Assembly (NCBI GenBank): GCA_947626095.1
Contig: CANQQV010000001.1
Location: 64,001-128,000, forward strand
Length of the DNA stretch: 64,000 nucleotides
Reading direction: 5' to 3'
DNA from: an uncultured Bacilli bacterium
GTDB taxonomy: Bacteria; Bacillota_I; Bacilli_A; RF39; UBA660
Shown piece by piece: positions 31,482-33,916 of the stretch (positions are counted from its first letter, which is position 1; every line of letters begins with the position of its first letter). Below the pieces are notes generated by a model. It was not told the DNA's origin and did not search any database. It saw nothing but the letters and a program-made list of their open reading frames with translations. The position numbers and the translations under genes are program-made.

Positions 31482-32486
31482 TTATAATTCCAAATAATTA
31501 TCTTTATCTAATACAAATAAACATTCACTAATTGCTTCTCCACGACCATGTACTGCTATTAACTTATTTAAAATCCTTATAAAAGTATCATCACAATTAT
31601 GTTCTTTCATTATTTTTACATATTCATTCCATACATAAGATGAATTCCCTAAATGTTGTTTTAATGTTCTTATAATATCAATAGCTATATCTTTATCAAC
31701 ACCCTGTTTAAGTAAATAATCAAATATATCATCAACACTAGTTATCAATTCATTAATAGTTAATTTATTCTGTTTATATAATTCATCTTGATTATCTTTC
31801 CATAACTTCACACTATGAGCAAGACTCTTAACTTTAATATAATCATCTATTGTTTTTGGTTCTAAGACATTAGCTATTTTTAAATCATCAGGTGTCGATA
31901 ATGAATTAACTAATTCTGCTTTATTACTATCTACTAAGTATTCTTTTTCTTTTATTTGAACCATTAAGTAATATGGCCTATATTCACAATCTGTTTCTAA
32001 AAGTCCATCACTATTAAATATTAACTTCATATTTTCTAATTCATAATACTCTGGAATAATCAAATACTTACTATCATCTTCTAGCTGATATTTATTTTTT
32101 AAATGAATAAATTTAAACGAATCATTCTTATTTAAATATCTTATAAAACAAGAAATAGGATCATTTAATATCTTAAAACTAAAATAATCATCTAAATATA
32201 GTTCACAAGCAAGATTATATTTAATAGGATCTACATTATTTAAACCTAAAATATATAATACTAATAAATTATTTATCATCCCTTCAAAGTAGAATGAAAC
32301 ATCATCATATTCTTTCTTATATCTATATAATTGTTCAATAATAAATAAAACATTCTTATCATAAAGCATATTTATTTCCTTATAACATCTATATAATAAC
32401 GTTTTATCATTCTTCTTTTTATCAAAGATTTCATTAAGTTCTCTTAATAAATAATTTTTAGCTTCAATATTTATATCTCGATACAT
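31482..32486 (-). CDS. C-family DNA polymerase (PolC/DnaE) palm-fingers remnant, catalytic motifs lost
   Basis: RCYKEI...GMINNLLVLYILGLNNVDPIKYNLACELYL and PKTIDDYIKVKSLAHS..LW.DN...ELITSVDDIFDYL..QG match PolC/DnaE segments by eye; no SRGS or PDID. Confidence 0.7.
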   Translation of the reverse strand: MYRDINIEAKNYLLRELNEIFDKKKNDKTLLYRCYKEINMLYDKNVLFIIEQLYRYKKEYDDVSFYFEGMINNLLVLYILGLNNVDPIKYNLACELYLDDYFSFKILNDPISCFIRYLNKNDSFKFIHLKNKYQLEDDSKYLIIPEYYELENMKLIFNSDGLLETDCEYRPYYLMVQIKEKEYLVDSNKAELVNSLSTPDDLKIANVLEPKTIDDYIKVKSLAHSVKLWKDNQDELYKQNKLTINELITSVDDIFDYLLKQGVDKDIAIDIIRTLKQHLGNSSYVWNEYVKIMKEHNCDDTFIRILNKLIAVHGRGEAISECLFVLDKDNYLEL

Positions 32487-32513
32487 CCTTTATCTCCTTT
32501 ATTAAAACTTATC

Positions 32514-32933
32514 TTAATTCTTACTTATCATTTTAATAGTCATCCTATCAAATTCACTATTATAAAATTTATCTATTACTTTTTTAAAAACTTCAATACT
32601 TTGATCAGCATAATAAAATAATGTCATACAAGACCTTACTTTTAAATCATCAGGATAACCTAATATTTCCGTCGGATCACTACTACTTAAATCTAATAAT
32701 GCTTGTGATATTTCTAATAAATTATTTTTTAAATATTCATTTTCTAAATAAGCTTTAGCTTCATTTAAATCATCTATTCCATAATATTCAGCCGTTGCAC
32801 TACTACCTAATCCTTTTAATTGCGGAAATATATACCAAATCCAATGGGTACGTTTTTTACCACTCTTAATCTCTTCTAATGCTATTTGATAATCTTTTTC
32901 TTGCATTACAATAAATCTATCTAAATTTCCCAT
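32514..32933 (-). CDS. DUF1810 family protein (Rv1873-like)
   Basis: LDRF...Q...Y..AL.EI.SG.KRTHWIWYIFPQLKGLGSS...PDDLKVRSCMTLF signature. Confidence 0.92.
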   Translation of the reverse strand: MGNLDRFIVMQEKDYQIALEEIKSGKKRTHWIWYIFPQLKGLGSSATAEYYGIDDLNEAKAYLENEYLKNNLLEISQALLDLSSSDPTEILGYPDDLKVRSCMTLFYYADQSIEVFKKVIDKFYNSEFDRMTIKMISKN

Positions 32934-32944
32934 CTTTCAATACC

Positions 32945-33313
32945 TCAATTTACTTCTTTTAAAACTTTAATAACTATATACATATCGCCAACTTTAATAA
33001 AACTACTTATCTTATCTTTTATAAAATCTAGTTCTTTATCATTAGGTTCTTTTAATATTACAACATTCCCCTTAACTAAATATGTCTTATTAACTACATT
33101 TAATTCTTTATTACGATTACTAATTAAAATACCTGATATAATTCCACTATTATCTTTTAGCTTTAAACATTCGATAATTCCCTCTTCTAATTCAACTTTT
33201 TTAATATCCGTAATTTCAACTTTTAAAGTTATATTCTTAACTTCACCTGCTATATCATTAATACTAGTAATATAACTATCATCTACGTCTAAACCTATAT
33301 CTTTTATTTTCAT
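32945..33313 (-). CDS. Stand-alone PolC-type OB-fold protein
   Basis: ITSINDIAGEVKNITLKVEITDIKKVELEEG...KLKDNSGII...YLVKG resembles the PolC OB domain. Confidence 0.65.
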   Translation of the reverse strand: MKIKDIGLDVDDSYITSINDIAGEVKNITLKVEITDIKKVELEEGIIECLKLKDNSGIISGILISNRNKELNVVNKTYLVKGNVVILKEPNDKELDFIKDKISSFIKVGDMYIVIKVLKEVN

Positions 33314-33319
33314 TATTAA

Positions 33320-33916
33320 TCACAACTCTTCAAATTCCTCAACTATCATTGATTTAGTATTAGACATATTAACAAAAACAAAACCCTTACATAAATATTC
33401 TTTATCTATAGCCACCCTGTCTATTAATTTTCTACTTTCATAATCACCATTATCATTTAATGTTAATTCTATATTCCTTGATTCATCACTAGCATCGAAA
33501 TGACCAACAGAAATTCCATTCTTTTCTTCAATCATAAATCCCTTTATTTTAACTTTAATAATATGTTTTTTATGATCATCACCAATATCTTTAAGTAATT
33601 CAATATTATTCTTATTTAATTTAGTAGCCTTTACTTGGTAACTTTTATGTTTTTCTTTACTATCTAGTAATGTTCCACCTACTTTAGTAATATAAAACTT
33701 ATATTCCGAATCTTCCCCATTAAGTAGATTAAATAAATTAGTTTTTAATAGATAACATAAATCCTGCATTTTACTTATATCTGGTAAACATACTCCACAT
33801 TCCCACTTACTAACTGACTTCGCCGTAACACCCATTAAATCTGCCAATTCTTCTTGTGTTAAATTAACCTTTTTACGACATTTAGCTATATATTTACCTA
33901 TCTTTTCTTGATTCAT
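33320..33916 (-). CDS. XRE HTH fused to a PolC-type OB fold
   Basis: N-terminal XRE HTH; C-terminal LLKDIGDDHKKHIIKVKI...FDASDESRNI...YLCKGFV...MIVEEFEEL is OB-like. Confidence 0.7.
   Translation of the reverse strand: MNQEKIGKYIAKCRKKVNLTQEELADLMGVTAKSVSKWECGVCLPDISKMQDLCYLLKTNLFNLLNGEDSEYKFYITKVGGTLLDSKEKHKSYQVKATKLNKNNIELLKDIGDDHKKHIIKVKIKGFMIEEKNGISVGHFDASDESRNIELTLNDNGDYESRKLIDRVAIDKEYLCKGFVFVNMSNTKSMIVEEFEEL

Follow-up and report, generated by a model that had tools for sequence, protein, structure and literature searches.

An accessory operon pairing a conserved, PolC-derived, apparently inactive polymerase core with predicted PolC-type OB proteins in an uncultured Bacilli bacterium

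Results

Organization of the operon

We analyzed a 64,000-nucleotide (nt) stretch of contig CANQQV010000001.1 (assembly GCA_947626095.1), hereafter the window, from an uncultured Bacilli bacterium whose genome is referred to as G000. The window contains an operon of four genes, all on the minus strand and in the same orientation, separated by gaps of 6, 11, and 27 bp. In the direction of transcription, the genes encode a 198-residue protein with an N-terminal Cro/C1-type helix-turn-helix (HTH) and a C-terminal OB fold (XRE-OB, 33320-33916), a 122-residue stand-alone OB-fold protein of predicted PolC type (32945-33313), a 139-residue DUF1810 or Rv1873-like protein (32514-32933), and a 334-residue pseudo-polymerase with the palm and fingers of PolC (31482-32486), which is referred to as mini-PolC. 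An extended -10 element, TGTTATAAT (33936-33944), and a ribosome-binding site, AAGAGGTGG, situated between TGTTATAAT and the ATG at 33916, can be read directly off the minus strand ahead of the XRE-OB gene. The promoter consensus scan missed TGTTATAAT because its -35 region is weak. Further upstream on the same strand lies a terminator-like hairpin (33992-34011) with an 8-bp stem and a 4-nt loop followed by a T run; the terminator scan gave two hairpin and T-run sites in 6.2 kb, compared with 0.5 expected from shuffled sequences. The hairpin terminates an upstream 212-residue gene and marks the operon boundary. The operon is predicted to be driven from its own promoter, with this terminator ahead of it. 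The gene layout, the terminator, and the extended -10 element agree with a preliminary description of this DNA, which had been made from the sequence without database searches.

Predicted fold of mini-PolC

An alignment of 63 family members (A1) was used for structure prediction by AlphaFold2 and for profile searches. The predicted mini-PolC structure has a predicted local distance difference test (pLDDT) score of 91.9 and a predicted template modeling (pTM) score of 0.90. In its Foldseek search, PolC 3f2b ranked first (E 1e-9, TMq 0.69) and DnaE structures came next. VIA-align placed 322 of the 334 residues onto residues 822-1303 of 3f2b with a Z score of 25.8 and a root mean square deviation (rmsd) of 3.5 Å; DnaE structures gave Z scores of 14-20, and the next unrelated folds, namely the CCA-adding enzyme, Cid1, and Pol beta, scored about 5. 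The structural similarity to polymerase III (Pol III) alpha that the preliminary description had proposed to check on a predicted model was thus found. In the VIA-align superimposition, mini-PolC starts at the palm and stops at the fingers, which leaves no room for a PHP, exonuclease, or HhH domain or for a C-terminal tail. For the same reason, it can have no clamp-binding region. The Pfam and NCBIfam scans likewise gave no match to a PHP or DEDDh exonuclease domain in mini-PolC.

The sequence likeness to PolC is local. The family profile matched the PDB sequences of PolC (9qpc, 6e-24; 3f2b, 9e-21) via the fingers only. The NCBIfam PolC model NF001688 aligned residues 209-309 to model positions 1171-1267 of 1445 (E 1.2e-13) at a score of 49.6 bits, far below the equivalog cut-off of 873, and PF07733 matched weakly at residues 17-99. 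The alignment with the genome's own PolC covers only 107 residues at 25% identity. In the relatives P0079 and P0082, the VNP motif is immediately followed by a retained CxxC...CxxC insertion, which we take to be the PolC zinc finger; the window protein is without this insertion. Judged by its model, the 334-residue protein is a complete, compact PolC palm-and-fingers core.

Active site of mini-PolC

PDID and KLDILG motifs were located in the genome's own PolC; we take them to be the PDxD and KxDxLG strands, where the three aspartates needed for C-family catalysis would reside. To place these columns in mini-PolC, we made two MAFFT alignments in which intermediate relatives served as a bridge. 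The catalytic columns fall on Y101, S103, and N158 in one alignment and on S103, K105, and K154 in the other, and the register of the first strand is hence uncertain by two residues. No register restores a catalytic Asp in the window protein, because the strand of residues 101-107, YFSFKIL, has no acidic residue. Register-free counts were made on the segment aligned to residues 97-110, in which 55 of the 63 members lack [DE]x[DE] and 60 lack DxD, while three have it. In one alignment, the column of the third Asp is Asn in 49 of the 63 members; in the other, it is variable. The GS motif of PolC (SRGSVGSS) corresponds to EGMINN in the window protein, with NN in place of GS. Two residues, E37 and N73, are invariant in the family, and N72 and E95 are almost invariant. 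In mini-PolC the spacing from the second to the third Asp position is 49 residues, versus 151 in the genome's own PolC, which indicates that the thumb has been deleted; in agreement with this shortened spacing, about 160 residues within the chain range of 3f2b stay unaligned to mini-PolC. All three aspartates are retained in some wider relatives (L060, P0089, and P0090). Going by these alignments, mini-PolC cannot be a canonical polymerase. The alignments and domain scans also bear out the earlier observation that the protein is without SRGS, catalytic aspartates, PHP, exonuclease, and zinc finger.

Extent, selection, and distribution of the mini-PolC family

A search of a 5.8-billion-protein index gave 61 matches to mini-PolC. 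Fifty-seven of them cover at least 90% of the query, with lengths of 331-369 residues and identities of 37-90%, and 40 of the 61 come with precomputed PF07733 and/or PF17657 assignments. An exhaustive search of 1.84 billion representatives returned 537 matches at E<=1e-3, of which 79 were at <=1e-10 and 21 at <=1e-30. The ESM Atlas holds at least 30 clusters of at least 50 members; four clusters among those listed contain proteins of 313-360 residues from Bacillota, labeled 'hypothetical protein' or 'DNA polymerase III alpha NTPase domain-containing protein'.

Pairwise ratios of nonsynonymous to synonymous substitution rates (dN/dS) were calculated by the Nei-Gojobori method with our own script. 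They are 0.18-0.22 for mini-PolC, 0.15 for XRE-OB, 0.19 for DUF1810, and 0.49 for the OB protein, next to 0.02-0.20 for flanking housekeeping genes. By this measure the operon genes are under purifying selection. The dS between the mini-PolC genes of the window (31482-32486) and of locus L009 (6001-7005) is 0.21 versus 0.55-0.80 for the flanking host genes, which suggests a recent exchange between the two lineages.

The distribution in the order was examined in 301 genomes of 0.6-1.6 Mb, almost all belonging to one family. The mini-PolC profile matched 295 of them, nearly all through the fingers of PolC. Mini-PolC itself occurs in eight genomes, full-length in seven (G000, G291, G186, G149, G003, G283, and G082) and as a fragment at a contig end in G122; the G283 copy has one in-frame TGA. 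In a class-wide sample of 399 genomes (E<=1e-40), only G000 and G003 carry it, that is, one of 49 same-family genomes besides G000 and none of 349 genomes from 29 other families. Mini-PolC is a real, conserved, and sporadic accessory family.

An intact polC, whose presence elsewhere in the genome the preliminary description had proposed to confirm, is present as a 1929-residue open frame (C20:14598-20384) with a summed score of 1543.6 bits against the cut-off of 873. Directly upstream of it, 3 bp apart, is a gene for a 978-residue DnaE-like protein (C20:20388-23321). This PolC is unusually long and has insertions that separate its conserved blocks; for the order, the PolC open frames listed have 1284-1894 residues, some of them possibly cut at contig ends.

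OB-fold and DUF1810 proteins

XRE-OB matched HTH_3 at residues 10-54 (2e-8, 34.5 bits versus a cut-off of 23), and its residues 122-198 matched the OB family PF01336 (7e-4) with 19.9 bits, below the cut-off of 27. The 122-residue OB protein had no significant Pfam or NCBIfam match, PF01336 included. Its AlphaFold2 model, made from an alignment of 13 rows (A2), is an OB barrel with a pLDDT of 81.6. No Foldseek match of this model reached E<=1e-3; all rows shown were chains containing an OB (AspRS N-domains, RPA, Stn1, and RecG), among which PolC 3f2b was at rank 3 with the best TMq of 0.63, an rmsd of 3.3 Å, and 19% identity. A reference profile was built from the OB regions of 11 PolCs of the order. 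Compared by hhalign, the whole family matched the PolC reference at 95.7% (E 9.5e-9, 82 columns), and the stand-alone OB proteins by themselves at 93.1% (E 3.3e-7). The XRE-linked OB alone reached only P 0.015. Of the two PolC-like OB folds in the preliminary description, the stand-alone one thus holds, and the XRE-linked one finds modest support when taken alone. The XRE-linked OB aligned with the stand-alone group at P 0.0018 over 79 columns, and iterated jackhmmer unites the two groups. As single-sequence controls we used the PF01336 domains of the genome itself: the OB of DnaE gave P 0.0036 and that of PolC P 0.011 over 81 columns each, and the other domains gave shorter alignments of 7-50 columns, such controls being weak for all OBs. 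The sequence comparisons thus point to a PolC-type OB; a DnaE-type OB is kept as an alternative in view of its single-sequence P of 0.0036, the profile comparison having covered PolC.

A six-frame search of the 301 genomes with the A2 profile, the strongest of these tests of specificity, matched 15 genomes at E<=1e-6. Eight of them hold the OB family (G000 twice, G283, G051, G122, G149, G186, G118, and G194). The matches in the other seven all lie in open frames of 1441-1625 residues, five of which were confirmed as PolC with the match in its N-terminal OB region (those of G103 and G046 were unchecked). The OB profile had no match among PDB sequences at E<=10. The protein index gave five matches to XRE-OB and three to the OB protein, which are few because the index is word-based.

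Homologues of XRE-OB in L009 and L011 are encoded directly upstream of an OB or mini-PolC gene, and XRE-OB is probably the autoregulator of the operon. The antitoxin models MqsA and HipB match the HTH part of XRE-OB only, all below their cut-offs, and the Pfam and NCBIfam scans found no toxin family in the operon. The 139-residue protein belongs to PF08837 DUF1810 (5.5e-52, 175.7 bits versus a cut-off of 25) and matches PDB 2jek (Rv1873) at 1.8e-29. DUF1810 is found in 14 of the 301 genomes and adjoins mini-PolC in three.

Gene linkage across loci

We examined 17 mini-PolC loci besides the window. As L044 and L053 are near-duplicates, and so are L052 and L056, the loci together with the window reduce to 15 distinct contexts. 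An OB gene is adjacent to mini-PolC in six (window, L009, L043, L044/L053, L046, and L083/G122), DUF1810 is directly adjacent in four (window, L010, L042/G291, and L083/G122), and XRE-OB occurs in three (window, L009, and L011). A DnaB_C-only ATPase with a Walker A motif occurs in three contexts (L011, L043, and L044/L053), at mini-PolC or up to three genes downstream of it, and a further region, which we call domain X, also in three (L046, L057, and L083). The gene order in L083/G122 is mini-PolC, DUF1810, and OB-domain X. Of the 301 genomes, eight have the OB family and eight have mini-PolC, and the two are adjacent in five, where independence predicts about 0.2; related genomes are, of course, not independent. 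Hence the conserved neighborhood proposed in the preliminary description stands as far as the recurrent OB and DUF1810 linkage is concerned, and not as a fixed four-gene set: the linkage is loose but recurrent.

Domain X has about 190 residues, no Pfam match, and repeated strand-rich motifs, and it occurs either fused to an OB, as in L046, or alone beside mini-PolC. As a recurrent partner it was located at L046 7104-8078, L083 417-1469, L057 1296-1904, and L104 1498-2466. Two genes upstream of mini-PolC, L057 also encodes a 334-residue protein in which an XRE HTH is fused to a Bac_DnaA AAA+ ATPase domain (295-1299, 2e-26). This is a second case of an XRE repressor joined to a replisome-type domain.

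Neighboring genes and wider relatives

Defense and mobile-element genes lie near some of the loci. L054 has a complete type I restriction-modification system directly after mini-PolC, and L045 has AbiD two genes upstream of it. L046 contains a tyrosine integrase, Fic, and a ResIII helicase that is similar to type IV restriction enzymes, and L043 contains a PcfJ-like protein and a methylase fragment. Among the four confirmed IMG/VR matches, there is no full-length family member of about 340 residues.

The relatives belong to a wide radiation of Pol III alpha-like proteins that are encoded on mobile elements and have a reduced thumb or none; DnaB_C, PHP, or DEDDh exonuclease domains are fused to some of them. 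Specifically, the 596-residue P0166 has a mini Pol III alpha-like core fused to DnaB_C. A 426-residue form on an IMG/VR contig (L048 7158-8438) has an MBL-fold hydrolase and two serine recombinases for neighbors, and a 793-residue form (L060 2104-4485), which retains all three aspartates and has a DEDDh exonuclease domain, is encoded next to two tyrosine integrases. The preliminary description had regarded the operon as an 'exploded PolC'. Taken as a recently split host polC, this reading is not supported in view of the wide mobile-element radiation and the low identity to the genome's own PolC, and mini-PolC more likely descends from mobile-element mini-polymerases.

Genomic setting of the operon

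The operon is part of a variable island (30201-36443) that directly adjoins the tmRNA gene ssrA (36573-36935, minus strand; Rfam RF00023, 132 bits, E 1.6e-51). The tmRNA gene is a classic integration site. Family scans of the island's proteins found no integrase, relaxase, or helicase, and the island has no att repeat, nor is the tmRNA end directly repeated at its bounds. The close relatives L009 and L010 have the same flanking host genes, the ssrA stretch being about 91% identical in L010, with different cargo between them. The cargo of L009 comprises XRE-OB, OB, and mini-PolC together with other genes, and that of L010 is limited to DUF1810 and mini-PolC, without any remnant of an XRE-OB or OB gene.

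The genes next to the operon are on the minus strand as well. The 212-residue protein upstream of the terminator (34018-34656) has no assigned family. A homologue of it was found by blastp (E 1e-11) and jackhmmer (1.7e-66), and as this homologue opens the OB/mini-PolC operon in L044, the protein is possibly associated with the module. It is preceded by the gene for a 281-residue protein (34665-35510), also without an assigned family, whose Atlas look-alikes are all 'hypothetical' proteins of Bacillota; the Atlas gave a weak lead (0.83) to AbiGi. Neither upstream protein had a meaningful match in the PDB sequence search. Eighty-four bp downstream of mini-PolC is the gene for a 398-residue XRE paralogue (30201-31397), whose residues 1-67 share 52% identity with the HTH of XRE-OB. 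The 5' ends of the two genes have a 46-nt stretch in common with 74% identity. The paralogue contains a hydrophobic stretch that probably spans the membrane. Since it is absent from the syntenic loci L009 and L010, it probably lies outside the core of the module.

Further downstream, a 415-residue open reading frame (ORF; 26146-27393) and a 658-residue ORF (27412-29388) are both missing from L009 and L010. Eight tandem copies of a 48-nt unit, corresponding to 16-residue repeats, lie at 26941-27418 within the 415-residue ORF. Ten DNA datasets and no RNA dataset were among the matching sequencing runs. Four of the ten hold at least three quarters of the sampled words, all labeled rabbit gut metagenome.

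Discussion

The genes described here make up a conserved, accessory module of a PolC-derived pseudo-polymerase and PolC-type OB proteins that resides in variable or mobile regions. We infer that it acts by binding and not by DNA synthesis. The leading, though tentative, reading is a role in host/mobile-element conflict or in defense: under the regulation of XRE-OB, the module would sense foreign replication or block it. The OB proteins would bind single-stranded DNA (ssDNA) or mini-PolC itself, and the dead polymerase core would occupy a primer-template site or the site of a replisome partner. Acting together, they would sense or block DNA replication by an invading phage or plasmid, with expression of the operon coupled to that signal through the XRE-OB repressor. 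The operon would then be an accessory, defense-type module assembled from parts of the replisome. A broader version of this idea, which we consider doubtful, is a 'replisome-mimic' conflict system made of guards or decoys against invading phages and plasmids, whose replication machinery they would detect or jam. Its lineage-specific parts on variable islands would be the dead thumb-less PolC core, the PolC-type OBs, the DnaB C-domain ATPases, and the XRE-OB and XRE-DnaA repressors. If true, such a defense would follow a principle without described precedent.

Several observations weigh against a defensive role or against the unity of the module. The operon has no recognizable effector such as a nuclease, an NADase, or a pore, and DUF1810 is without known activity. 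PADLOC-DB 2.0 contains no model for mini-PolC, OB, or DUF1810 and gives XRE-OB only generic HTH matches; no PHROGs model matches mini-PolC, OB, or DUF1810; and the defense content of the loci was screened in a few neighboring genes only. Some loci, with their DnaB_C-only ATPases and the XRE-DnaA-ATPase fusion, resemble mobile-element replication modules. In five of the 15 contexts, no recurrent partner was recognized beside mini-PolC; eleven of the 14 genomes with DUF1810 have it without mini-PolC; and in G051, G118, and G194 the OB family has no mini-PolC within 1.5 kb. The likeness of the XRE-linked OB to PolC, when assessed by itself, is modest, and the binding of ssDNA, primer-template, or a partner is a prediction.

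The resemblance to replication modules leads to a reading in which the dead PolC core and the OB belong to the replication module of a mobile element and serve as an adaptor for replication or hijacking. Working with a DnaB-C-type helicase and a DnaA- or DnaC-like AAA+ loader, they would either link the host replisome with that helicase or origin or displace the host PolC, without synthesis of their own. The Walker A-containing DnaB_C-only proteins next to or shortly downstream of mini-PolC in L011, L043, and L044/L053, the natural fusion P0166, the XRE and Bac_DnaA ATPase gene near mini-PolC in L057, and the PcfJ-like, integrase, and serine-recombinase neighbors in L043, L046, L048, and L060 are all consistent with it, and so is the exchange suggested by the low dS of mini-PolC. 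We nevertheless regard it as unlikely, since the window island is devoid of integrase, relaxase, helicase, and att repeat, mini-PolC occupies one shared chromosomal site, flanked by conserved host genes, in three related genomes, and the confirmed IMG/VR matches include no full-length member. A home in the host replisome is improbable. By analogy with ImuB, the inactive paralogue might scaffold or regulate PolC or DnaE as an accessory subunit of replication or repair; it is conserved though inactive, its OB partner is of predicted PolC type, and the genomes are small, with PolC frames of the lengths given above. Yet such a subunit would hardly be confined to eight of the 301 genomes of the order with variable neighbors; moreover, the operon encodes no active polymerase or RecA-like protein, and a clamp-binding region is impossible in a protein that stops at the fingers.

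The palm and fingers surface kept around a dead active site, the defense genes near some loci, and the XRE regulator fused to an OB fold would also suit a decoy for titrating or sensing PolC inhibitors encoded by phages, as the preliminary description had envisaged. A protein with 25% identity over 107 residues to the genome's own PolC would be a poor surface mimic, no phage PolC inhibitor was identified here, and the operon has no effector, so that we rate a decoy as decidedly improbable; the results do not separate it from the broader binding model. It is very improbable that mini-PolC is an active, non-canonical nucleotidyltransferase or primase relying on other residues. Its palm is Pol-beta-like, with CCA-adding enzymes, Cid1, and Pol beta aligning at Z scores of about 5, it has the invariant E37 and N73 and the nearly invariant N72 and E95, and L060, P0089, and P0090 retain three aspartates; against this, the DxD strand of the window protein has no acidic residue, the column of the third Asp is mostly Asn in one alignment and variable in the other, and the GS motif and thumb are lost. 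That the genes are decaying fragments of a duplicated polC is extremely improbable. The local and low similarity to PolC and the in-frame TGA of the G283 copy would fit decay, a reading contradicted by the uniform length of about 331-369 residues in 57 of 61 matches, the compact and confidently predicted fold, and a dN/dS of about 0.2; in addition, the order of the linked partner genes varies between loci. The family of 61 matches, its dN/dS, and the recurrent linkage equally contradict random fragments confined to a single genome. As the operon genes show purifying selection (dN/dS 0.15-0.49) and represent conserved families with recurrent linkage, repurposing, which the preliminary description had preferred, is the better explanation.

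A literature search gave no description of an inactive thumb-less PolC, although the supplements of published surveys might list such fragments, and in the literature covered no counterpart of this make-up was found, as the preliminary description had supposed. In the parts of the two C-family surveys available to us, fragments without an intact active site were removed in one (PMC3919608) and strongly diverged and truncated sequences in the other (PMC12926913); on this account, a family like mini-PolC would have been filtered from both. The operon thus looks like an undescribed accessory module. We found no inactive paralogue described for the bacterial replicative C family, unlike the Y family with its ImuB. 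Were the module to sense or block foreign replication, it would represent a new logic for bacterial immunity or mobile-element biology; were it a scaffold, it would be the C-family counterpart of ImuB. In either case, the 334-residue, confidently modeled mini-PolC offers a system for asking what a palm-fingers surface binds without catalysis.

Compared with PolC (3f2b and 9qpc), mini-PolC has the palm-and-fingers fold across the whole of its 334 residues and keeps the fingers motifs, and its partner OB matches the OB of PolC. Unlike PolC, it is without the N-terminal domain, PHP, DEDDh exonuclease, thumb, and HhH/clamp-binding tail, and it has lost the catalytic Asp residues and the GS motif. 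Separate genes encode the OB fold, and instead of being universal like polC, the mini-PolC gene is accessory and sporadic. With the thumb-less or thumb-reduced Pol III alpha-like proteins of mobile elements (P0096, P0099, P0166, L048, and L060) it shares a PF07733 N-half and PF17657 fingers, a short or missing thumb, and mobile-element neighbors. Several of those proteins keep three aspartates, carry PHP or exonuclease domains, and may be active, whereas the window family is without the triad and stands with OB, XRE-OB, and DUF1810 genes. Minimal PolC-like polymerases reported from phages are active; the mini-PolC family differs from them in being inactive and linked to OB genes. Inactive polymerase paralogues are also known in the B family.

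ImuB is a catalytically inactive Y-family homologue that works with DnaE2 (PMC12926913). Going by the portions of the sources seen, mini-PolC resembles it in being a conserved polymerase paralogue without catalytic residues and a presumed binder or scaffold (PMC12926913, PMC3919608). It differs from ImuB in having a C-family and not a Y-family fold, and the operon and its flanks differ from the ImuA-ImuB-DnaE2 mutasome in that they encode no active C-family polymerase or RecA-like protein. WYL-domain regulators such as PafBC and DriD join a DNA-binding domain to a nucleic-acid sensor domain. By analogy, XRE-OB may be a regulator of this kind, joining an HTH to a domain class that binds single-stranded nucleic acid, the predicted sensor being an OB fold instead of WYL.

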